NCBI GenBank assembly: GCA_965612865.1
Contig: CBFDTJ010000025.1
Location: 1 to 18,399 of the forward strand
DNA length: 18,399 bases
Source of the DNA: an uncultured bacterium
GTDB taxonomy: Bacteria > Caldisericota > Caldisericia > B22-G15
Reading direction: 5' to 3'
Shown: positions 2,893 to 18,398 of the stretch, one piece after another
Layout: the number at the start of each line of letters is the position of its first letter
Numbering within the stretch: position 1 is the first letter of the stretch
Program-made: the position numbers and the translations under genes
The notes under the pieces: model-generated
Told to the model about the DNA's origin: nothing
The model's input: only the letters and a program-made list of their open reading frames with translations
The model's database searches: none

Positions 2893-3915
2893 CTAGAATC
2901 CTCCAAGCATCCTTGCGACAAACACACAGAGTTCAGCTCTTGTTGCAGGAGTTTCAGGGTAAAATCTTGAATTTATAACTATTGGATAGTCTGGTTTCCT
3001 GATAATATTATTCTGGAATGCAGTTTCTATAAAGGGATAGTACCATTCATTGGCAGGAACATCAAAGAATGAGGGGGTCTTCGGTTTGATAATAGGCCAT
3101 TTCTTCGCATTCACAATAACAGTTATAGCTTCCGCTTTTAATACATTTCTGTTGGGTTTAAATGTTCCATCTGGATATCCTTTTACAAGTCCCTCTTTTA
3201 CACTTCTTTCAATAAAGCCATAAGCCCAGTGAGATTTCGGAACATCAGGAAAAGTTGGTTTCTCAGGAAAATATGCTTCTAAATTAAGACTTTTTACCAT
3301 TATTGTAACAAACTCTGCTCTTGTAACGTTATTATCAGGTCTGATAGTTTTATCGGGATAACCTTTTATTATCCCAAGATCAATAAGATATTCAATTTCT
3401 TCTTGAGCCCAATGATTCTCTATATCCTTAAACTCATATTCCTTTTTTACCACTATACTTCCATCTATTCCATGAGCTTCAATACTCTGATTCTGAGAAT
3501 CTCTTAGATCTATCAGAACAAATTTTAGATAACTTTCACCTTTCTTTTTTCCCTCAAAAGTAATATAGCAGAGATTCCCCTTTTCTTCTTTTACTGGATC
3601 CCCTAATCTTGCTATGGAGATATCTATTAAACCTTTCTCAGTAGAAAATTTAAAGAAAGTAGAAACATCACCTTCTTTTAAAAACTCGCCCTCTTCTACA
3701 CTCTTAACAGAAAGAATCTCCTCATTGTATCCAATCTTTATATGGACTCCAAGTAAATTAGGTGATAAATTTTCAATTGACAGTGTAATCTTTACAGATT
3801 CTTTTTCTTTTATCTCAGATTTTTCAGGTGTAATTTTTAAAGTTGTTCCTTCAGAGGAGAAGGACAGAGATAGCGGTATTATGAAAAGCAGTAAAAGTAG
3901 AATTATTTTTCTCAT
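2893..3915 (-). CDS. Secreted cohesin-like domain plus S-layer homology (SLH) anchor protein
   Basis: Signal peptide MRKIILLLLLFIIPLSLSFS; cohesin-like segment (GVHIKIGYNEEILSVKSVEEGEFL...GNLCYITF...IDLRD); three SLH repeats (FKDIENHWA..IIKGYPD..TRAEF; FPDVPKSHWA..VKGYPDGTFKPN; FFDVPANEWY..TRAEL). Confidence 0.85.
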   Translation of the reverse strand: MRKIILLLLLFIIPLSLSFSSEGTTLKITPEKSEIKEKESVKITLSIENLSPNLLGVHIKIGYNEEILSVKSVEEGEFLKEGDVSTFFKFSTEKGLIDISIARLGDPVKEEKGNLCYITFEGKKKGESYLKFVLIDLRDSQNQSIEAHGIDGSIVVKKEYEFKDIENHWAQEEIEYLIDLGIIKGYPDKTIRPDNNVTRAEFVTIMVKSLNLEAYFPEKPTFPDVPKSHWAYGFIERSVKEGLVKGYPDGTFKPNRNVLKAEAITVIVNAKKWPIIKPKTPSFFDVPANEWYYPFIETAFQNNIIRKPDYPIVINSRFYPETPATRAELCVFVARMLGGF

Positions 3916-3916
3916 C

Positions 3917-6900
3917 TTATCCTCCCTCTGGTTTGTAGAAATTCCAGTTAATAATAAAGACCATTAGATCGTTAAAATCAACTGCTCCATCTGGTTTCTT
4001 CTGTGTTACTGGTGCTAATCCTGTAGGTGAAGAATCCCATATATCACATCTATTGAAAGGAGATCCGGGGATATTTGATTCCTTTTTATCCCAGCCTTTA
4101 TCTCCTTTCTTATGTCCAAAGGCAAGTGAAAAGATAACCAGATCCTCAAAATCTATCTTTCCGTCTTCATTAAAATCCCCAACAAGTTTGACTTTTTCCA
4201 CAAATTTTACAGTTTCGTTCTCTGTATAATGAGCTATTGGATCTCCAGAGGTGTCTCTAAGATCTGAATATCCAAGTGGTAATTTAACCTCAGTTGTAGT
4301 GGAGATTGAAGCTGAGGGGGTTACACTAAAGTAAATTACTGCAAGTGTTCCAAAACCACTTGCCCCTGTACCACCAAGCCTTGATGTATTGATAACTACT
4401 TTCCCGGTGAAGTTATCAATGGTATATAAGAATACAGTGGAAGCTCCACCCTGTTTCAAGAATCCTCCCTCTATGACCTTTGAGACTTTTATAAGCTTTG
4501 GATCAAATTCCACATAAAATTTTGCTGCCATAAGGTTTGTTATTGGTTCACCAGGTTTACCAATTTCCACAGCTTTTTTGAAAGTATATCCTTCCTTAAC
4601 TTCGACCTCTTCGTATGGAGGATTAAGCCATAAAGGCACTGATTTCTCTACACACCTACACTTAAAATTAACAGTGACGTGAGTTCCAGCTGTTACTGTA
4701 ACCTTCTTTGATTCTGTCTCGCATTTCAACTTCACATATACTTCATAATCACCAGGTATAAGCGTTAAGCAAGTGGAGTATTTACCATTTTCATCTGTTT
4801 TACCATACCAAGCGATTTCTTTACTTGGTAATGGACCCAGTACAACTACTGTAGCGTTCTTACATCCATTTCCTGTGTCAGAATCAATAACAGAGCCTTC
4901 TATTCCTCCCTTCTCTTTACAACAATTACATTCAAATGTTATTTCTTTCTTTTCACAAGCTTTAACCACAACATCTCTAACTTCAGGTGAAATTTTGCAT
5001 GAATCTCTGGGTGATTTAGCAACTACCTTATAGTTTCCTGGTTCAAGGCTCTTACATGTATCAAACTCTCCATTATCGTCAGTTAATCCTTCCCAAACGA
5101 GATTTCCACTTGAGTCAAATATAAGTATTTTTACATCTTTACATCCTACGAATGTAGAGGAATCTTTATAACACACAACTTTTCCTTTAATTCCTCCCTT
5201 TTTACACTCTTCGCACTCACAATCAAATTCAATTCTTGTTTTTTCGCATGGTTTAACTGCTACCCATTGATATTCAGGAATATATTTACAGTTTTCTTTA
5301 AAGGGAACCACCTTATACTTTCCAGGATTTAGATTTTTACATGTATCAAAAACTCCTTCTTGATTCGGTTTTCTGCTCCAGCTACCTGTTACTTCAACTC
5401 CTTTCTCGTCGTAAATTTTAACTTCATCTGGAATGCACTCTTTTTTAAAGATTGCGATGATGCCACCAAGTTGACACTCTCTGCAACAGTCACATTTAAA
5501 TTTGATATATGTTTTGTGACAGGCTTCAATTTCAATTTTCTGTTCACTTGGCGTGAAATTACATTTTTCTGATACAGGTCTTACTGTATAAGTTCCAGGA
5601 AGGATATTATAACATGTATCAAAGACACCCTCGTCATTGGTTTTTGTCTCCCATACAATTTCACCGCTCTCATCGTAAATTAATACAGATACATTTTTGC
5701 AGGGACCATAATCACATCCTATGTATCCTGTTACTCCGCCAAAACAGCTACAGACAAAATAGACCTCTGATTTTTTACCAGAACTTACCATAACTGTTTT
5801 AAGGTCTGGACTGCAGTTTATTCCTGGTTTAACTTTATATATTCCAGGTACAAGGGTATAACATGTATCAAAAACTCCATTTTCATCTGTCTTACCGGTT
5901 ATTACAATAGAGGTGGAAGGTAGAGGCCCGCTTATAGTTATTGGTATGTTTGGACATGGTTTTGTTTTATTTTCTTCATCATGAGAGTCATATATTTTAA
6001 CTATTATTCCACCTGGATTCTTCTTTTCAATCTCCACCATATAATCCTCAACTTCACCGTCTGTTGCAAGACCTGTGGGAGAAAGTCCACCAGTAGTACT
6101 GAATCTAAATCGAGCAAAAGTTTTACCAGCTTTTGCAGATGAAGGAACATTGAAGTTTAAGTTATTTACTCCAGCGGATACCGGAGTACTTATAAATATT
6201 TGCTCATTGGTATCAAGCCAATCACCGTCAATATTGAAGTCTATCCAGGCATCAATGAATCCTCTTGCTGAAGCGATTATTTTTACTCCAGCTACTCCAC
6301 CAGGTATAAGTGAAGTTGTAAAGGTAACTCCGTCTTCATCATTATTTCCGTCAAGCACATCATCTCCAGTTGCATTTGCATTTGGTTGCCCATCATTTTC
6401 AGAATCTATTTTTGTTCCTAAAAGGATGTTTGGAGTTATGATATGCCTTGCTCCGTTATTTTTAAGAAGTGTAGGATATGAGGGATCAGGTGCGTCGCCA
6501 AAGTCCATTGTTTCTGTTACCCCTTGTCCTATCAGTAGAAGATAATCTTCAGTTTCTCCATCCTCAAAAGCTCCGCTACCGTTCCAATCCACAGGTACAG
6601 GCCTTTCGCTGATGGTAAACCTTGCCCATACATATCCTGGTGTAGGACCAATGCTAAATGGCGGAGGATTTAGACCTGATAGAAATCCTGAATATCCCTT
6701 TGGAATTCTGAAGTTTACTAAGACATGCTCAGGGATTGGAGAAATCTGTCCAGGGCATGCTGAATGACCACCCCAGGATCCGTTTTGATTCCAGTCCATA
6801 AGGACATTCACATATCCATCAACAGGCATATTGTTTTTGACAATAATATCAATGTCTTTGCCCCACACAGCGGTTTGGCACACTTTTCCAAGAGGAGTTC

Positions 6901-7579
6901 CATTGGAATTAGGACATGGAACAACCTGTCCACCAATTATTGTGAAGGGCTCAGGATACAAAAGTCCACTATCCCCATCCTTAAAACACTCATCATTATC
7001 GTATGGAGCGAAAATTGGACACAGCCCTCCATTTCCATCATTTTCGCTGTCCCATCCATGTCCAAAACGAGCCCATCCAAGTCCATGTTGTATCCATTTG
7101 CCGGGACCAACTCCCTTACATGTTGGAAAATTACCTATAACCCCTTTAGAAGGATAGGCTAATACACCTTCAGGTGCATCTCCAAAGTCCAATCCTTCCT
7201 CTGGTATTTCCTCACACTCACATGATTCAAAATGAATTTCTACTTTACTCTCTGCCACCACATCAACATCAATATACGGCGGATAGAATGTGCATCCTGT
7301 CTTCGAAGCTGTAACTCTGTATCTTCCAGGTTGTAGAGTATAGCATGTATCATATTTTCCAGAAGCATCTGTTTGACCCTGAGCTATTAAGGCGGTGCCT
7401 GTCTGTATCATAATTGTAGCAGGGGAACAGTTGGGAGGAACATATACAATGATACCCCCCTGGTTTGCTAAGCTGGATGTACTGTAGGTTTTATTATGTC
7501 CAAGCAGGGATATAGATAGGAGAAGTATTAATAGAATAACCAATAACAGTTTAGCTCTCAATCTTGAGATAAAATACAT
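3917..7579 (-). CDS. Large secreted multidomain surface protein: Cys-rich beta-sandwich repeats, two GEVED domains, cohesin-like and dockerin-like modules
   Basis: N-terminal hydrophobic signal; RBS GGAGGTG at 7593-7587; two DFGDAP...GE(T/V)EDY units; six GG...G.TD..G.FDTC..L.PG.Y.V repeats; cohesin-like (FYVEFDPKLIKVSKVIEGGFL...GTLAVIYF); dockerin/EF-hand-like GDFNEDGKIDFEDL and DGAVDFNDL. Confidence 0.85.
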   Translation of the reverse strand: MYFISRLRAKLLLVILLILLLSISLLGHNKTYSTSSLANQGGIIVYVPPNCSPATIMIQTGTALIAQGQTDASGKYDTCYTLQPGRYRVTASKTGCTFYPPYIDVDVVAESKVEIHFESCECEEIPEEGLDFGDAPEGVLAYPSKGVIGNFPTCKGVGPGKWIQHGLGWARFGHGWDSENDGNGGLCPIFAPYDNDECFKDGDSGLLYPEPFTIIGGQVVPCPNSNGTPLGKVCQTAVWGKDIDIIVKNNMPVDGYVNVLMDWNQNGSWGGHSACPGQISPIPEHVLVNFRIPKGYSGFLSGLNPPPFSIGPTPGYVWARFTISERPVPVDWNGSGAFEDGETEDYLLLIGQGVTETMDFGDAPDPSYPTLLKNNGARHIITPNILLGTKIDSENDGQPNANATGDDVLDGNNDEDGVTFTTSLIPGGVAGVKIIASARGFIDAWIDFNIDGDWLDTNEQIFISTPVSAGVNNLNFNVPSSAKAGKTFARFRFSTTGGLSPTGLATDGEVEDYMVEIEKKNPGGIIVKIYDSHDEENKTKPCPNIPITISGPLPSTSIVITGKTDENGVFDTCYTLVPGIYKVKPGINCSPDLKTVMVSSGKKSEVYFVCSCFGGVTGYIGCDYGPCKNVSVLIYDESGEIVWETKTNDEGVFDTCYNILPGTYTVRPVSEKCNFTPSEQKIEIEACHKTYIKFKCDCCRECQLGGIIAIFKKECIPDEVKIYDEKGVEVTGSWSRKPNQEGVFDTCKNLNPGKYKVVPFKENCKYIPEYQWVAVKPCEKTRIEFDCECEECKKGGIKGKVVCYKDSSTFVGCKDVKILIFDSSGNLVWEGLTDDNGEFDTCKSLEPGNYKVVAKSPRDSCKISPEVRDVVVKACEKKEITFECNCCKEKGGIEGSVIDSDTGNGCKNATVVVLGPLPSKEIAWYGKTDENGKYSTCLTLIPGDYEVYVKLKCETESKKVTVTAGTHVTVNFKCRCVEKSVPLWLNPPYEEVEVKEGYTFKKAVEIGKPGEPITNLMAAKFYVEFDPKLIKVSKVIEGGFLKQGGASTVFLYTIDNFTGKVVINTSRLGGTGASGFGTLAVIYFSVTPSASISTTTEVKLPLGYSDLRDTSGDPIAHYTENETVKFVEKVKLVGDFNEDGKIDFEDLVIFSLAFGHKKGDKGWDKKESNIPGSPFNRCDIWDSSPTGLAPVTQKKPDGAVDFNDLMVFIINWNFYKPEGG
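4652..6013 (-). repeat. Five tandem ~85-95 aa Cys-rich repeats; a sixth copy lies at ~7215-7460
   Basis: Protein-level repeat ending in F.C.C. The identical 12-mer ACATGTATCAAA (FDTC on the minus strand) occurs at 5054, 5339, 5612 and 5861. Confidence 0.85.
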
Positions 7580-7654: not shown

Positions 7655-7728
7655 TGGGGAGTCGTCTAACGGTAGGACAGCGGACTCTGGATCCGTAAGT
7701 CGGGGTTCGAATCCCTGCTCCCCAGCCA
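7655..7728 (+). tRNA. tRNA-Gln (anticodon CTG)
   Basis: Acceptor stem TGGGGAG/CTCCCCA, discriminator G and encoded CCA; D-arm GTC-TAACGGTAG-GAC; anticodon arm GCGGA-CTCTGGA-TCCGT; T-loop GGTTCGAATCC. The U1-A72 pair is typical of bacterial tRNA-Gln. Confidence 0.97.
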
Positions 7729-11527: not shown

Positions 11528-13169
11528 AGAAAATCCTGTTAAAATTACGTTTCTCGGTGGTCTTGGAGAAATTGGAAAAAACATGACAGTTTTTGAGGAT
11601 AGAGATTCTGCCTTTATTCTTGATGCAGGTTTCAAATTTCCAGAGGCAGAGATGTATGGAGTTGAACAGGTTATCCCGGATATGGGGTATATTGAAACAA
11701 TTAAAGATAAGTTAAAAGGGCTTGTGCTTACACATGCACATCTTGATCATATAGGGGCAATAAAGTTTGTATTTGAAAAGATTAAATTACCTCTTTTTGG
11801 AACAAAACTCACTTTAGGACTTGCTTCAACAGTTATTCCTGGAAGATACAAACCATATGAAGAGCATGAAATAAAGCCTGGCGAAAGATTTAATATAGGA
11901 ACCTTCCAGCTGGAAGGGGTGTATGTTAATCACTCCATCCCAGATGGAATAGGTCTTATTATAAGAAGAAAGGGTTGTGGCACTATATTTCACACAGGTG
12001 ATTTCAAGATAGATGCTACTCCCATTGACGGAAGAGCAATAGATTTGCAGAGGATTGGAATGCTCGGGAGGGAAGGAGTTTTGCTTCTCCTTTCAGATTC
12101 AACTAATGCTACAAGAGATGGTCTTACTGGTTCAGAGAGGATTGTCGGCGACAATCTTGAAAGACTTTTTAGAAAAACAAAGGGAAGAATCATAATAACC
12201 ACCTTTTCAACAAATATTCATAGAATACAGCAGATATTCGATATATCATGGAAGTTAAAAAAGAAGGTCCATGTTGATGGTAAAAGCTTTGTAAACATTA
12301 TAAGTGTTGCAAAAAAGCTGGGATACCTTAATATTCCTGATGGTTTAACTGTTGATATAAATGAGCTTCCTCTTGTTCCTGACGAAAATCTTGTTATCCT
12401 TACAACGGGGAGTCAGGGAGAACCTCTTTCAGGTCTTACAAGGCTTTCATCTTCCACCCACCAGAGATTAAGAATTCTTCCCGGAGATACAGTTATTATT
12501 TCTGCCCATCCTATACCAGGTAATGAAGAGTTTGTTAACAGGACAGTGAACAATCTATTTTCTCTCGGCGCCGATGTTATCTATAGAGAGGAAGAAGGAA
12601 TCCATGTATCAGGCCATGCTTCAGGAGATGAATTGAAGATAATGCTTCAGCTGACAAAACCAAAATTTTTTGTTCCAGTTCATGGAGAGACAAGGCATCT
12701 CTATGCACATAAAAAGATTGCTCTTGATGTTGGTGTTGAGGATAACAATATATTTATTCTCGAAAATGGTGATTCTCTAATTGTGTATGATGATAGAGTG
12801 AGGAGAGGGAAAAAGGAAATTTCTGGAGAGTTGTTTATAGATGGTCTTGGTTTTGAAAAAGAAGAGAGCGAAGTTCTAAAGGACAGGAGATTTCTTGCAA
12901 AGGAGGGGATTGTTGCTGTTGCTCTTATAGTTAAGAAAGGAAGGCTTAAGGATATTAAGTTTGCCTCAAGAGGTTTCTTTGCAGAAGAGGAACTTAAACC
13001 AATTCTTCAGAGTGCCAGGGATAGAATTTTAACTATTTTCTACGAAAATCATAACTATTCAAGGGATATCCTTGAAAGGGATATAAATGGTGCACTTTCT
13101 TCTCTATTTTATAAAAAGACAAGAAGAAGACCCATGATTCTTACCCTCATATTTGAGGAAGAACAATGA
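11502..13169 (+). CDS. rnj: Ribonuclease J
   Basis: LGGLGEIGKNM, metallo-beta-lactamase motif THAHLDHIG, HSIPD, HTGDFK, SDSTNA, TGSQGEP, HVSGHA, PVHGE and TRRRPMI. Confidence 0.96.
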   Translation: MTNLKDYCKENPVKITFLGGLGEIGKNMTVFEDRDSAFILDAGFKFPEAEMYGVEQVIPDMGYIETIKDKLKGLVLTHAHLDHIGAIKFVFEKIKLPLFGTKLTLGLASTVIPGRYKPYEEHEIKPGERFNIGTFQLEGVYVNHSIPDGIGLIIRRKGCGTIFHTGDFKIDATPIDGRAIDLQRIGMLGREGVLLLLSDSTNATRDGLTGSERIVGDNLERLFRKTKGRIIITTFSTNIHRIQQIFDISWKLKKKVHVDGKSFVNIISVAKKLGYLNIPDGLTVDINELPLVPDENLVILTTGSQGEPLSGLTRLSSSTHQRLRILPGDTVIISAHPIPGNEEFVNRTVNNLFSLGADVIYREEEGIHVSGHASGDELKIMLQLTKPKFFVPVHGETRHLYAHKKIALDVGVEDNNIFILENGDSLIVYDDRVRRGKKEISGELFIDGLGFEKEESEVLKDRRFLAKEGIVAVALIVKKGRLKDIKFASRGFFAEEELKPILQSARDRILTIFYENHNYSRDILERDINGALSSLFYKKTRRRPMILTLIFEEEQ

Positions 13170-14650
13170 AAAAGGTTAAATTTGTTGACCTTACTTTAAG
13201 AGATGGGCAGCAGAGTAATGCTGCCACAAGAATGACTACAGAGCAAATTTTAAGAGTTTTAAAACCAATTGTTGATTCTGGTTTTTCTGGCATGGAGGTA
13301 TGGGGAGGGGCGACCCTTGATAGCGCCATGAGATACTTAAAAGAAGACCCATGGGAAAGATTAGAGAAGATAAGAGAAGTTGCATCAAATCTTCTTGATA
13401 TACGAACTCTTATAAGGGGGCAGAATCTTTTTGCATACTCTCCATATCCAGATGACCTTGTGATTTCATTTGTTAAGGAAACAGTTAGAACTGGATCCAA
13501 TCTTATAAGAACTTTTGATGCCTTAAATGACTGGAGGAACTTACAAACATCCATCATGGCCACAAAGACCTATGGAGGAAAAATTGAAGGTGCAATGTCT
13601 TATACAACAGGCCCTGTTTTTAATGAGAAGTATTACCTTGACCTTGCCCTTACCCTTCAAGATGAAGGATGTGATCAGATTGCAATTAAGGATATGGCTG
13701 GAATTCTTGAACCAAAGGTGGCATATAAACTCATAAAGCTTCTAAAAAGTAAGTTGGAAGTTCCCTTAACACTTCATTCTCATACTACAGTTGGGTTTGC
13801 TACTCTCAATGCGATTATAGCAATGCATCTTGGGGTGGATTTTATTGATACAGCATTTGTTCCTTTTGCTGGAGGAGCATCCCATCCTTCCATTGAGGTT
13901 CTCATTGTTTTTGCTGATTTTATGGGAATTGAACATGACATTGATAAGAGCAGGTTCGCATATATAAATAAAGAACTTTTTAAGATATTTGACGAGATTG
14001 GAAAATACTCTCCATACTATGGAAAGTATTACAGAAATTTTGATGTAGAAAAAATTGACATGAAGAAGGTTGAAAAGATAGTAAGAATTGTTACAGACGA
14101 GGATCTTGATAAATTTGACGAAGCCTTAGATCTTACGAGAAAATTACTTTCAGAGCTTGATTTTCCGCCACCAGATGAAAGACAAATCAAGGCTCAGATT
14201 CCAGGGGGAATGCTTACAAATCTGTACAACCAGTTAAAACAGATTGGGAAACTTGATCTTCTTGATAAGATACTTGAGGAGGTTCCACGGGTGAGAAAAG
14301 ATGCTGGATATCCTCCCCTTGTTACCCCCACAAGTCAAATAATTGGCTCTCAGGCTGTCTTTAATGTCCTTTCAGGAGAAAGATATAAACAGGTGAGCAA
14401 GGAATTTAGAATGCTCATAAAAGGTTATTTTGGAAGAACCCCTGTTCCCATTGATAAAGAGTTTATGGAAAAAATACTTGGTAAGGACGAAGAGATTTTA
14501 AATTGCAGGGCAGCATCCTATCTTAAGCCAGCCTTATGTAATATTGGGAAAGTTCCTTCATATGTGAAGACTCATAGAGATTTACTTTTGTATCTTATGC
14601 TTGAAGAAACAGCAGACGAATTCTTAAAATTTAAGTATAGAGAGGCGTAA
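13166..14650 (+). CDS. Pyruvate carboxylase subunit B / oxaloacetate decarboxylase alpha-like carboxyltransferase, without a biotinyl domain
   Basis: DLTLRDGQQS, WGGATLD, EDPWERL, IKDMAG, LHSH, QIPGGM and GYPPLVTPTSQI; no C-terminal AMKM biotin-attachment motif. Confidence 0.88.
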   Translation: MKKVKFVDLTLRDGQQSNAATRMTTEQILRVLKPIVDSGFSGMEVWGGATLDSAMRYLKEDPWERLEKIREVASNLLDIRTLIRGQNLFAYSPYPDDLVISFVKETVRTGSNLIRTFDALNDWRNLQTSIMATKTYGGKIEGAMSYTTGPVFNEKYYLDLALTLQDEGCDQIAIKDMAGILEPKVAYKLIKLLKSKLEVPLTLHSHTTVGFATLNAIIAMHLGVDFIDTAFVPFAGGASHPSIEVLIVFADFMGIEHDIDKSRFAYINKELFKIFDEIGKYSPYYGKYYRNFDVEKIDMKKVEKIVRIVTDEDLDKFDEALDLTRKLLSELDFPPPDERQIKAQIPGGMLTNLYNQLKQIGKLDLLDKILEEVPRVRKDAGYPPLVTPTSQIIGSQAVFNVLSGERYKQVSKEFRMLIKGYFGRTPVPIDKEFMEKILGKDEEILNCRAASYLKPALCNIGKVPSYVKTHRDLLLYLMLEETADEFLKFKYREA

Positions 14651-14651
14651 G

Positions 14652-15749
14652 GTGAGTGTTGTTTATTTTGGTAGCATGAGATCTATATCAGAAGAGAGAT
14701 CATTTTTAAAGAAGATAAGAAAGATAGCAGATATACTCACTGATAATATTGATGAGGGTGATCTTGTAGCCATAAAACTTCATTTTGGTGAGCTTGGGAA
14801 TCATGGTTTTTTAAGACCTATATTTGTGAGGCAGGTTGTTGATGTAATTAAAGAGAAAGGTGGCAAACCATTTCTCACAGATTCCAACACTCTTTACAAA
14901 GGTTCAAGGTCAAATGCAGTGGACCACTTAAACACAGCAGTTTACAATGGATTTTCCTATGCATCTATAGGTTGCCCTGTGATAATCGCTGATGGAATTA
15001 AAGGTCAATATTATCAAGAAATACCTGTAAATTTAAAGTATTTTAGAACTGTTAAAATTGCAGGTGCCATTGTTGATGCCGATTACCTTCTTGTTCTTAC
15101 CCACTTCAAAGGCCATATGATGGCTGGATTTGGAGGAGCTATAAAGAATGTTGCCATGGGGTGTGCTACAAGAGCTGGAAAACAAGTTCAGCATGCAGAT
15201 TTCAAACCACCATTTAATGAAGAGAAATGTATAGGATGTGGAGAGTGTGCGTCACACTGTCCCGAGGATGCTATAAAAATCGTTAATGGAAAATCAGATA
15301 TTGACTATGATAGATGTACAGGATGCGGAGAGTGTGTGACTGTATGTCCCACAGGTGCAATAAGTATTGTATGGGAAGAACCAACTGAGAAACTTGAAGA
15401 AAAAATGGCAGAGTATGCCTTCGGGGTTTTAAAAATTAAAAAGCCAAAGGTATCTTTTATAAATTTTGTTGTAGATGTATCTCCAGACTGCGATTGTCTT
15501 CCATGGCATGATGCAAACATTATTCCTGATGTGGGTGTTTTTGGTTCAAAAGATATATTGTCTGTAGAACAAGCATCTTTTGATGCAATAAAGAATGCAC
15601 CGGCACTTCCTGATACATCAGTTAAAGAAATACCCCTTATTGGAGAAGACAAATTCTATCATATTCACCACCTATCCGGAGAAACTCAACTTAAATATGC
15701 TGAAGAAATAGGTTTAGGAGAGAGGAGTTATAAAATAAAGAGGGTATAA
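14652..15749 (+). CDS. DUF362-domain protein with a 2x[4Fe-4S] ferredoxin insert
   Basis: AIKLHFGE, HFKGH..GFGGAIKN, CIGCGECASHCP, CTGCGECVTVCP and SPDCDC; GTG start 1 nt after the upstream stop. Confidence 0.88.
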   Translation: MSVVYFGSMRSISEERSFLKKIRKIADILTDNIDEGDLVAIKLHFGELGNHGFLRPIFVRQVVDVIKEKGGKPFLTDSNTLYKGSRSNAVDHLNTAVYNGFSYASIGCPVIIADGIKGQYYQEIPVNLKYFRTVKIAGAIVDADYLLVLTHFKGHMMAGFGGAIKNVAMGCATRAGKQVQHADFKPPFNEEKCIGCGECASHCPEDAIKIVNGKSDIDYDRCTGCGECVTVCPTGAISIVWEEPTEKLEEKMAEYAFGVLKIKKPKVSFINFVVDVSPDCDCLPWHDANIIPDVGVFGSKDILSVEQASFDAIKNAPALPDTSVKEIPLIGEDKFYHIHHLSGETQLKYAEEIGLGERSYKIKRV

Positions 15750-15785: not shown

Positions 15786-16184
15786 ATGAGGATCTATCTA
15801 TTTCTGTTTTTCATGGTGGGGGTTTCGATTCTATGGCTCTGGTTTCTATTCTTTATTACAAGAAAACTTACAGGAGCAAAGGTTATTGCAGTTATTATAA
15901 TTGCACTTGTAGGTCTTGTAGTCTTTTTCGGGATTAAATACTATTCCTTTTACCTCTATGATCCCAAAAGTTTTTATATAATCCCTGCACATAAACTAAC
16001 CTATGGAGGTGTAAGACTCTTTGATTTTATCTACTTTAGTTTTGTCACAATAACAACTCTGGGCTATGGAGATATTATCCCCCTCCATACGCTCACAAAG
16101 ATTCTTACAATTCTTGAGGTTTTAATGGGTGTTAGCTTTGTTGGTTTAATTCTTGGAAGAATAGTTATTAAAAGGGAATCATAA
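15786..16184 (+). CDS. Small potassium-channel-family membrane protein (pore-only, Ion_trans_2-like)
   Basis: YFSFVTITTLGYGDI pore helix and filter, two preceding hydrophobic segments and one following; RBS AAGGAGGT. Confidence 0.85.
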   Translation: MRIYLFLFFMVGVSILWLWFLFFITRKLTGAKVIAVIIIALVGLVVFFGIKYYSFYLYDPKSFYIIPAHKLTYGGVRLFDFIYFSFVTITTLGYGDIIPLHTLTKILTILEVLMGVSFVGLILGRIVIKRES

Positions 16185-16826
16185 AGTTTTTCTTGTCACA
16201 AGCAGTCTTATATATCCAAAGGCTAATGGAATTTCTTTTTCTACCTTGAAACCGAAATTTTCTACATATTTTGATAAATCTATTTTTATAAATTCAAAGG
16301 CAAGCGGACATTCAAACTTTTTAAAGAACCATCTTACTATAAAATTTGCCGTATCAATATCAAACTCAGAGTAATCAAGTATGTTAAGTTGCCCTCCATC
16401 CTTTAGACTTTTATAGGCATTCTTTAAAATTTTTTCTCTATCATAATCCTCAAATCCATGAAATACAAAGGACATAAAAACATGGTCAAATTCATTCTCA
16501 AAGGGTAAGTCCTCTTCAATTCTTCCATCAAAAACTTTAAAATTTTTATACTTTTCACTTCTTCTCTTTGCCGCTTCGAGCATCTCTTTTGATATATCAA
16601 CACCCACTATCTCTCCATTAAATTTCATCTTCTTTAGCATCAAAATGGCATTTTTTCCGCTTCCGCACCCAAAGTCAATAACTCTATCCCCCTCCTTTAG
16701 ATCCATCTTATCAATAGCTCCCTTTATAAGCCTTGAATATCCACCAAAGGTCAGTAGACTCATCAATATATCATAATTTTTTGCTACAAATCCAGAAAGT
16801 TCAACCTTGCTTCTATCACCTCCCAT
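16179..16826 (-). CDS. Class I SAM-dependent methyltransferase (UbiE/MenG-like)
   Basis: Motif I VIDFGCGSG, GVDISKEML, LPFENEFD, FVFHG and LKDGG; RBS GGAGG. Confidence 0.9.
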   Translation of the reverse strand: MGGDRSKVELSGFVAKNYDILMSLLTFGGYSRLIKGAIDKMDLKEGDRVIDFGCGSGKNAILMLKKMKFNGEIVGVDISKEMLEAAKRRSEKYKNFKVFDGRIEEDLPFENEFDHVFMSFVFHGFEDYDREKILKNAYKSLKDGGQLNILDYSEFDIDTANFIVRWFFKKFECPLAFEFIKIDLSKYVENFGFKVEKEIPLAFGYIRLLVTRKTL

Positions 16827-16835
16827 AATGCCTCC

Positions 16836-18398
16836 TTAAGGTCTTATAATCTTTATTCTATCACCTTCCTTAATCTCTGTTATATGCACTAAACTCCTTC
16901 CCTTTCCCAGGTAGAAAGATAAATTCCCATTTCTTTTTCCTTTTAGAAAAAAATAGAGATTTAATCTGTCCACCTCTTTTCCATTATAAAACAGAGGAAT
17001 CTCTATATCAAAATCGTCAAATCTTATTTTCGCTTTTTCTTTCTCTAATTTGATTCCCTTTACAGTTAAATATTTTCCTTTAACGTATCTTCTGCCAAAT
17101 CTTATTTTTCCATAGAACTTGGTTATCTCTTCTAAGGAATTTACCTTTTTTAGATCAGAACCATATTTAACTATCCTTGAAATGGTAACAGGTTTATTTA
17201 AGAACAGCTTGAGCGTTATTTCTCTTATATTCATTTTCTTTTTATTCATAAGTGATAACAAAAACTCAGAAAACCTGTTTATTGATGGGGGTCTTATAGG
17301 TGCTAATGTGAGAGAGAGGAATTTCTCTATTTTTTTAATGTTTGCTTTACCTTTGACCACCCTCTTAAGATAATTAATTCTACTTCGGACCTTTCTAAGT
17401 ATTTTTAATTTTAACTTTTCCTCCTCGCTCTTGTTTCCCTTTCTTAAATTTTTAATGTGTTTTCTAAGTCCCTTTTCTCTGATTTTTAATTTTTCAAGTT
17501 CTTTATATCTTCCAAAATCAATTATTTCTTTAACTCCATTTACCATTTCCTCAAAGGTCATCCCTGTATCCTGTGGGGTTTTTACAAGCACTGTGGATAG
17601 AATTTCATCCGGTTTTAATGGATGCGGGTAAATTTTTTCTGTTTTTTTCACAAAGACTTCATTCACTATTTCTCCTTCTATGCTGTGCAATTTAAGAAAG
17701 AGTTTATCAATTCCCTGCCCGATTAGAAAGAAGCTTGTATCTTCTATGGAAAAGATTTCGTTTCCAAAGGCAATCTCTTCTTCAATCCTTCTTTTTTCTT
17801 TTCTCCCTGTTTTTAGAAACTTTAAGTTTACATCAAATATAGTTTCGGGAAAAGGATAACCAAAGTAAAGATAGTCAAAGAGTAATGCCTTGAATATTGA
17901 GCTCACTGCATAGGAGTGGGAAAAGAGGTCTATGTCATTTGCTCCTCTTCTTGTATCTGATATCCCTTCCTTAAGGAAAAGCTTTAAACCCCATATTATC
18001 TTATCTCTCTTTAGTTCCTTAAAGAATAAGTCAACGAATTTCTCAAGTCTTATTCTTAAGTAAGATAATCTAACATAATCCACCCTTTTTTCCTTTAAAA
18101 AGAAGTCCGAAAGGAAGGTTTCATTAAATTCCTGTTTACCTGAATTCGGGGGATTTGATGAATCAAATCTATCAGCTATTTGAAGTAGTTTAATGAAAGG
18201 ATTTTTATCAAATGTTCTGCATTTTTCCTTAAGTTTACATCTTTCACATCCATGATGTGCACAGATAAAATGTATTGGAGCAATACCATCTGAGATTAAA
18301 TCAATTCCGCTAAATTTTTCTTTTAGGGGAGTAAAAAGGAATTTTCTTAGATTTGGTGGAAAAGGGTCCTTGAGTATTAAGACAGCGTGGGAGTCTTT
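16836..18398 (-). CDS. 5'-truncated HD-domain protein resembling a shortened Csx11 (type III-C Cas10-like)
   Basis: The frame stays open 105 codons upstream of the ORF-track GTG at 18083, adding KDSHAVL...FICAHHGCERCKLKEKC...LLQIADRFDSSNPPNSGKQEFNETFLSDFFLKE. Downstream it has SDTRRGANDIDLFSHSYAVSSIFKALL, IEEEIAFGNEIF and LVHITEIKEGDRIKIIRP, which resemble Csx11 motifs as I recall them. Confidence 0.7.
   Translation of the reverse strand, partial: KDSHAVLILKDPFPPNLRKFLFTPLKEKFSGIDLISDGIAPIHFICAHHGCERCKLKEKCRTFDKNPFIKLLQIADRFDSSNPPNSGKQEFNETFLSDFFLKEKRVDYVRLSYLRIRLEKFVDLFFKELKRDKIIWGLKLFLKEGISDTRRGANDIDLFSHSYAVSSIFKALLFDYLYFGYPFPETIFDVNLKFLKTGRKEKRRIEEEIAFGNEIFSIEDTSFFLIGQGIDKLFLKLHSIEGEIVNEVFVKKTEKIYPHPLKPDEILSTVLVKTPQDTGMTFEEMVNGVKEIIDFGRYKELEKLKIREKGLRKHIKNLRKGNKSEEEKLKLKILRKVRSRINYLKRVVKGKANIKKIEKFLSLTLAPIRPPSINRFSEFLLSLMNKKKMNIREITLKLFLNKPVTISRIVKYGSDLKKVNSLEEITKFYGKIRFGRRYVKGKYLTVKGIKLEKEKAKIRFDDFDIEIPLFYNGKEVDRLNLYFFLKGKRNGNLSFYLGKGRSLVHITEIKEGDRIKIIRP

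Follow-up and report, generated by a model that had tools for sequence, protein, structure and literature searches.

At the edge of an assembled contig, an open frame was found whose motifs recall Csx11, the large subunit of type III-C CRISPR complexes. The question raised by this locus is whether such a subunit can exist as a stand-alone protein and, if so, what it would do. The window (the whole stretch of DNA analysed, 18,399 nucleotides) is the entire contig C25 of genome G000. The frame is 520 aa long, lies on the minus strand, is open at its 5' end, reaches the contig end and stops at 16836 (Table 1).

The open frame and its start

The original prediction held that the frame continues past the window edge and is at least 520 aa long, which agrees with a 520-aa frame open at the 5' end. 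All of the motifs listed there were present in the order given, with the spacing of the terminal motif merely approximate. In G002, a genome of the same genus, the orthologue is 556 aa long and differs from the G000 frame at 5/520 positions. Residue numbering throughout is that of the G002 orthologue, of which the G000 frame covers residues 37-556.

The G002 locus was aligned onto two G000 contigs, C72 (95.8%) and C25 (98.1%), leaving 61 unaligned bases between the two alignments (G002 as reference). Codons 1-15 lie on C72 (1-46, minus strand) and residues 16-36 fall in the assembly gap. Judging by the loci of relatives, the gene most likely continues from C25 onto C72. The G002 protein starts with an HDIGK motif (LFHDIGKLS). 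The HDxGK motif that had been expected upstream was located in this 99% identical relative, but in the G000 copy the positions of H17, D18 and K21 are within the gap of ~61 nt, and an HD dipeptide is presumed there from the relatives.

On C72 the gene begins 6 nt after the tmRNA gene ends. In most genomes of family f1, the start codon was just 6-8 nt past the tmRNA CCA end (G000:C72:46-53; L002-L006), too close for a ribosome-binding site to fit outside the tmRNA. A leaderless message, released when the tmRNA 3' end is processed, may be what is translated, or a site within the tmRNA may be used. Promoter and terminator scans gave results at chance level.

Homology, fold and active site

Csx11 (TIGR02682) was the sole NCBIfam match to the frame (E 2.2e-9, 36 bits against a cut-off of 248.95); the full-length G002 protein scored 48 bits, still under the curated cut-off. 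PADLOC returned a Cas10c match (E 5.8e-17). No Pfam family was matched by the frame, and no significant match was obtained in a PDB sequence search. The nearest ESM Atlas clusters were of Csm1/HD types (0.89-0.92), and no cluster of its own was identified. The 556-aa G002 protein was modelled with AlphaFold2 (pLDDT 87.7, pTM 0.89). The top Foldseek rows for this model were all Csm1 (best E 2e-4). VIA-align superimposed model residues 5-468 on residues 2-619 of the Csm1 chain (Z 18.3, rmsd 3.6, 263 residues aligned); Cmr2 gave Z 11.5-12.4, and lower rows were generic coiled coils. The fold over model 5-468 is shared with Csm1 and Cmr2 (PDB 6mua_A, 6ifk_A, 4w8y_B; Z 18.3 and 11.5), and the eight-residue HD consensus is shared with Csm1; unlike these proteins, the short form has no GGDD palm-2 site and no crRNA complex genes nearby, and identity is 12-16%.

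Profile-profile comparison with eight full-length Csx11 proteins gave a probability of 100% across residues 2-269, the N-terminal half, with a deletion of ~27 residues in the first palm. The degenerate palm-2 hairpin of Csx11 and the helix that follows it were gapped in this protein. For the middle region no significant profile match was obtained, its mapping to the palm-2 insertion and helix having a probability below 8%; the KPVTISR helix probably corresponds to the KNPSPxR palm-2 helix of Csx11 (profile probability 7.6%). The C-terminal parts of 12 longer short forms corresponded to Csx11 residues 706-867 (probability 97.4%). The protein ends at the equivalent of Csx11 residue 867/1009, and the C-terminal helical domain is missing. 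When the C-terminal domain was folded alone, its best Z was 4.5 and no clear structural match was found; this domain is present in families f1 and f7 and absent from f3 and f4. On the NCBIfam, PADLOC and profile-profile matches, the motif match to Csx11 is judged to be more than chance. The proposed assignment to a Csx11/Cas10 III-C derivative was upheld by TIGR02682, Cas10c, the profile comparison and the Csm1 structure matches, as were a central deletion (first palm shortened, palm-2 hairpin and helix gapped) and an early stop. The GGDD motif is absent, as also noted, but this is not distinctive, as the cyclase site is lacking throughout subtype III-C; half of its members keep a recognisable HD domain (PMC11229360). 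The cyclase of III-C Cas10 is described as inactivated (PMC3150331, PMC12669027, PMC8730458).

Table 1. Genes and protein parts located in the window (G002 residue numbering).
Feature	Position	Strand	Remarks
Short Csx11/Cas10-derived gene	16836..18398	-	residues 37-556 of 556
Cas10-type permuted HD domain and helical extension	17847..18398	-	residues 37-220; H40, H84, H85, D112, H197; consensus PMC12700095
Cys cluster C82-x-HH-G-C87-xx-C90-x5-C96, in place of L1 gating loop	18219..18263	-	possible metal site
D112 and D-x-x-D-x-S-N-P...KQ stretch, in place of L2 gating loop	18132..18173	-	
DTRR-x-x-ND-x-x-L-x-x-H motif	17916..17957	-	includes permuted His197
First palm-like domain remnant (GNEI hairpin)	17607..17846	-	internal deletion relative to Csx11
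Basic antiparallel coiled-coil arm	17352..17555	-	residues 318-385; family-invariant H350, N353 near tip
PIRPPS motif and KPVTISR helix	17175..17300	-	
C-terminal beta-rich domain	16839..17120	-	homologous to Csx11 ~706-867
UbiE-like methyltransferase	16179..16826	-	
Small ion-channel-like protein	15786..16184	+	
DUF362 ferredoxin	14652..15749	+	
Carboxylase-like protein	13166..14650	+	
tRNA	7655..7725	+	G001 counterpart is tRNA-Gln
1220-aa surface protein	3917..7579	-	
Cohesin and SLH protein	2893..3915	-	

Short forms were compared in a set of 42 sequences, comprising 31 ORFs taken from genomes and 11 library proteins chosen for being complete or nearly complete; the set excludes fragments and six further carriers, and its members, being kin, are not independent. 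Their frames are intact (449-706 aa). The linker zinc finger (CxxC...CxxC) was seen in 0/42 short forms against 11/13 full-length Csx11. In Csm, the HD consensus is HD..K..H..HH..D..H; loop L1 begins directly after HH, L2 lies across the cavity, and both gate ssDNA entry (PMC12700095). The consensus maps to H17, D18, K21, H40, H84, H85, D112 and H197. The first three were kept in 41/42 short forms (one sequence lacks its start) and the other five in 42/42, whereas the same eight columns were kept in 6 to 13 of 13 full-length Csx11 proteins, a range that is partly alignment-dependent. Seven of the eight HD residues were aligned in all rows of four Csm1 outgroups.

Further positions were invariant specifically in short forms: K30, D38 and H350 (42/42), and N353 and P406 (41/42). 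Four cysteines surround HH at the place of L1 in 34-35/42 sequences, and the eight sequences that lack them form the f7 branch. The net charge of this protein is +39, against -19 to +7 for full-length Csx11, with the strongest basic charge in the coiled-coil arm. Five f4 proteins are neutral to acidic (pI 5.8-8.0).

With Csx11/Cas10c (TIGR02682; PDLC01314, PDLC00918) the short form shares the permuted HD domain with its helical extension, the GNE hairpin, the C-terminal beta domain, the order of these parts and the lack of a cyclase site. It differs in length (449-706 aa against 881-1227 aa); in having neither linker zinc finger nor C-terminal helical domain, nor, in this protein, the two complete cyclase-dead palm domains; in its added Cys cluster, coiled-coil His/Asn and RPP motifs; and in being a lone inherited gene, where Csx11 of III-C sits among RAMP genes. 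III-C systems have an operon with RAMP (Cas7/Cas5) and small-subunit genes, and no such operon was found around the short form. By sequence and gene context, the protein is placed outside both Csx11 and III-C, yet it carries a Cas10 HD domain.

Distribution, neighbourhood and descent

A profile search of 93 genomes of the phylum matched 50. The short form was present in 44, including five with pieces at contig ends, and was nearly always single-copy; six more genomes had only longer Csx11-type frames. By family, carriage was 9/9 (f1), 22/26 (f3), 5/11 (f4) and 8/9 (f7). The gene is regarded as dispensable because it was not found in any of the 23 f2 genomes (0/23) or in two single-contig f4 genomes. 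Source labels of members were Caldisericota/Caldisericia, with Coprothermobacterota for one of the f7-like cluster; Eremiobacterota/Vulcanimicrobiota labels applied to one cluster and to the neighbours of two metagenome loci. No match to the short form was obtained in collections of phages, plasmids and viruses.

A RAMP match was obtained in 16/44 carriers and Cas1 in 23/44, with at least one of the two in 26/44; the carriers are draft genomes, so RAMP was not found, rather than shown to be missing, in 28/44, and the same applies to the 18/44 with neither (12 of these 18 at least 90% complete). No RAMP match was obtained in the single-contig carrier G026, nor any RAMP or Cas1 match in G000 (87.6% complete), G001 and G002. 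RAMP genes on the same contig as the short gene were ~31 kb (G010), ~65 kb (G003) and ~365 kb (G045) away. G004 and G047 contained both the short form and canonical Csx11. A crude search for repeats in G000 picked out contig C89 alone, and no array. The C89 feature (G000:C89:2400-4200, minus strand) is a long, degenerate repeat that seems to encode a beta-helix-like surface protein; it was rejected as a CRISPR array by eye, being of the coding type.

Upstream of the gene, C72 carries tmRNA, phosphopentomutase-like (deoB-like), XerD-like, Nudix and M20 peptidase genes (families assigned from G001 orthologues). A reduced type III module beyond 18399, one option in the original prediction, is contradicted by this run of genes on C72 and in relatives. 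The orphan state also proposed there was confirmed, with no cas operon beside the gene and housekeeping genes upstream. Neighbours were scanned as selected rather than all ORFs: a cas-family match was found for 0/67 beside short forms, whereas 14/21 beside full-length Csx11 were RAMPs. In f6, full-length Csx11-like proteins of 1217-1227 aa (L075:10614-14264; L076:7677-11357) have ~250 extra N-terminal residues, and their genes come after a 252-aa gene within the RAMP operon. By eye, the extra N-terminus and the 252-aa gene resemble an AbiE-type toxin-antitoxin pair fused into III-C.

The context of the short form was stable inside each family and different between families, and no neighbour was common to all. 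Family-specific neighbours were tmRNA (f1), a radical-SAM gene (f3), a CAAX-type protease (f4) and DUF58/DUF4129 (f7). The f3 loci had varied nearby genes, including AbiEii, ParE-like, IS200, resolvase and AAA/DUF4143; toxin-antitoxin or mobile genes were often close by, which argues against a purely housekeeping picture. In two Vulcanimicrobiota-like loci an NrtR regulator gene is the neighbour, directly upstream (L086:4688-5356; L087:7270-7941). A GT-N7-AC stretch at L086:4638-4648 resembles the NrtR box and is a candidate for one.

The tmRNA was considered as a functional partner and rejected. It is adjacent in 9/9 f1 genomes and not in other families (more than 600 kb apart in G026); the adjacency is read as position and not function. 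The downstream methyltransferase is co-oriented in G000 and G002 and absent from this position in G001, and is therefore placed outside the unit. Between RNase J and the short gene lie four genes, encoding the carboxylase-like protein, DUF362 ferredoxin, small ion-channel-like protein and UbiE-like methyltransferase (Table 1); in G001 they do not lie between these two. Elsewhere in the window, the cohesin and SLH protein gene adjoins that of the 1220-aa surface protein, which has GEVED and repeated Cys-rich prealbumin-like domains, a weak cohesin match and, by eye, a dockerin-like C-terminus. The two are possibly a non-cellulosomal anchoring pair.

dN/dS was 0.12 for G000 against G001 (Nei-Gojobori) and 0.14-0.16 in three pairs of the sister genus, compared with 0.04-0.11 for neighbour genes; it was 0.08-0.23 in all four gene regions. 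The short form is under purifying selection and evolves somewhat faster than its neighbours. In a quick tree of 55 HD regions, 42 short forms were split from 13 long forms (SH-aLRT 99), and families and genera were grouped. A careful 37-row tree, with its root placed on four Csm1 sequences, supported the short clade at 97/91; f7, the longest form, branched first (rest 81/76). The Vulcanimicrobiota-like group was placed next to f4 (99/96), suggesting a single transfer. Monophyly of full-length Csx11 had support of 42/54 with a distant outgroup, and the short forms are nested inside it or sister to it. From the graded losses, and from the C-terminal domain held in common with Csx11, we infer that the short forms arose from Csx11 by reduction; they make a deletion series of about 690, 556, 500 and 470 aa. 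A decaying copy, which the original prediction tied to close relatives all being full-length, was rejected, as the relatives are short, conserved and under selection.

Possible functions of the short form

The short form is very probably a CRISPR-independent, selected derivative of Csx11 with a predicted working HD site. That it would act on single-stranded nucleic acid in housekeeping is given about an even chance. The best overall explanation, a domesticated, CRISPR-independent, metal-dependent phosphodiesterase, probably on single-stranded nucleic acid, is likewise evenly balanced between right and wrong. The stand-alone Csx11/Cas10 derivative of the original prediction is seen as a lone gene in one clade with no cas neighbours; an enzyme activity is predicted.

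In the proposed mechanism, the type III-C large subunit Csx11 would have been domesticated into a stand-alone protein, losing the linker zinc finger, a large part of each palm domain and the helical domain at the C-terminus, and keeping the HD residues. The product would be a two-metal HD phosphodiesterase active without a crRNA complex. A lone Cas10 subunit can be active, since Cas10 subunits of type IV-C, when isolated, cut ssDNA and RNA in the presence of metal (PMC13676074). The substrate would most likely be single-stranded nucleic acid (ssDNA, RNA or short oligonucleotides), which the strongly basic character of the protein favours; the f4 proteins lack this character, and a polyanion substrate fits them poorly. 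The role may be a non-essential housekeeping one, for example in turnover or in processing for repair. Because a nuclease without gating would do harm, the pocket is probably gated by the rebuilt loops, L1 (Cys cluster) and L2, in place of activation by target RNA, and the basic coiled-coil arm may hold substrate or partner.

A stand-alone phosphohydrolase of the HD type, acting on a small nucleotide (ADP-ribose or an NAD-related compound, cyclic dinucleotide or oligoadenylate, or a damaged nucleotide), with no nuclease activity, is possible, if on balance unlikely. The new invariants K30 and D38 (42/42) and the rebuilt loops suggest a changed pocket, and the f4 proteins are not basic, but most members are strongly so. 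The gene follows NrtR by 20-40 nt in the two Vulcanimicrobiota-like loci, which are close relatives. The f1 gene is near Nudix and phosphopentomutase genes, but a Nudix-xerD-deoB run is a common housekeeping cluster. The Cas10 HD domains characterised in PMC12700095 and PMC13676074 are nucleases.

A single-gene anti-phage or anti-plasmid nuclease, working without CRISPR and switched by the coiled-coil arm or Cys lid, is distinctly improbable. It would agree with an origin in a defence complex, with the patchy pattern of loss, with the somewhat higher dN/dS and with the variable f3 neighbours (AbiEii, ParE-like, IS200, resolvase, AAA/DUF4143), and mCpol shows that a piece of Cas10 can serve in defence without CRISPR (PMC12657230). 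However, the gene has a fixed position among housekeeping genes within each family and is near-universal and single-copy in f1 (9/9) and f3 (22/26); its tree is grouped by family and genus, and the phage, plasmid and viral collections searched yielded no copy on a mobile element.

Action in trans, as a helper or substitute large subunit of type III complexes encoded elsewhere, is very improbable. RAMP genes do occur in 16/44 carriers, in G010 only ~31 kb from the short gene on the same contig, and G004 and G047 hold both the short form and canonical Csx11, but no RAMP match was found in 28/44 carriers, single-contig G026 among them. The zinc finger and C-terminal helical domain, which make complex contacts in other Cas10 proteins, are also gone. 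A decaying remnant of a lost III-C operon is barely credible: internal deletions do vary in extent between families, but 42 sequences have intact frames of 449-706 aa with an invariant active site, and dN/dS of 0.08-0.23 in all four gene regions refutes decay unless the orthologue sets were misassigned.

The domesticated phosphodiesterase has also been extended into a fuller scenario, which as a whole is unlikely: domestication near the base of Caldisericota, giving a housekeeping nuclease for single strands that has a new cysteine-based, metal- or redox-sensitive HD lid and a coiled-coil sensing arm, possible single-strand processing where RecJ is not found, and later passage to Vulcanimicrobiota. 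RecJ (TIGR00644) was found in 0/41 genomes of the class at E 1e-20 (the control matched in 10/14), and YhaM-like genes in 10/41, seven of them carriers. Replacement of RecJ or YhaM was rejected because no complementary pattern was seen, RecJ being found in 0/41 regardless of carriage.

The short-form family is apparently undescribed in the literature searched. The open literature searched gave no description of it, and no paper with both Cas10 and Caldisericum; it may be listed in papers behind subscription or in the PMC12669027 data files. Type IV-C Cas10IVc is also a Cas10-related HD subunit, and cleaves ssDNA and RNA when isolated, but belongs to a crRNA complex with Cas7 (PMC13676074); it is likened here by description and not by sequence comparison. 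The stand-alone Cas10 relative described in the papers cited here is the polymerase-only mCpol (PMC8730458, PMC12657230). Like the short form, mCpol of Panoptes is a miniature Cas10 relative outside CRISPR loci. It is a cyclase alone, with an effector, in defence, whereas the short form has kept HD and lost the cyclase, has reduced palms and has no conserved partner gene.

The stand-alone Cas10 relatives described in the papers found have retained the cyclase and a role in defence. The short-form family has retained the nuclease site and shed the remainder, and it resembles a housekeeping gene passed on by descent; this suggests that a CRISPR protein was recruited for a different job. Its graded series (about 690, 556, 500 and 470 aa) records the loss of complex-forming parts, and a single-chain Cas10 HD domain with rebuilt gating loops offers a test of how HD is controlled without target RNA. 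If the fuller scenario is true, the family would mirror mCpol, with HD alone kept, and would be one of few instances of a Cas10 leaving defence altogether.
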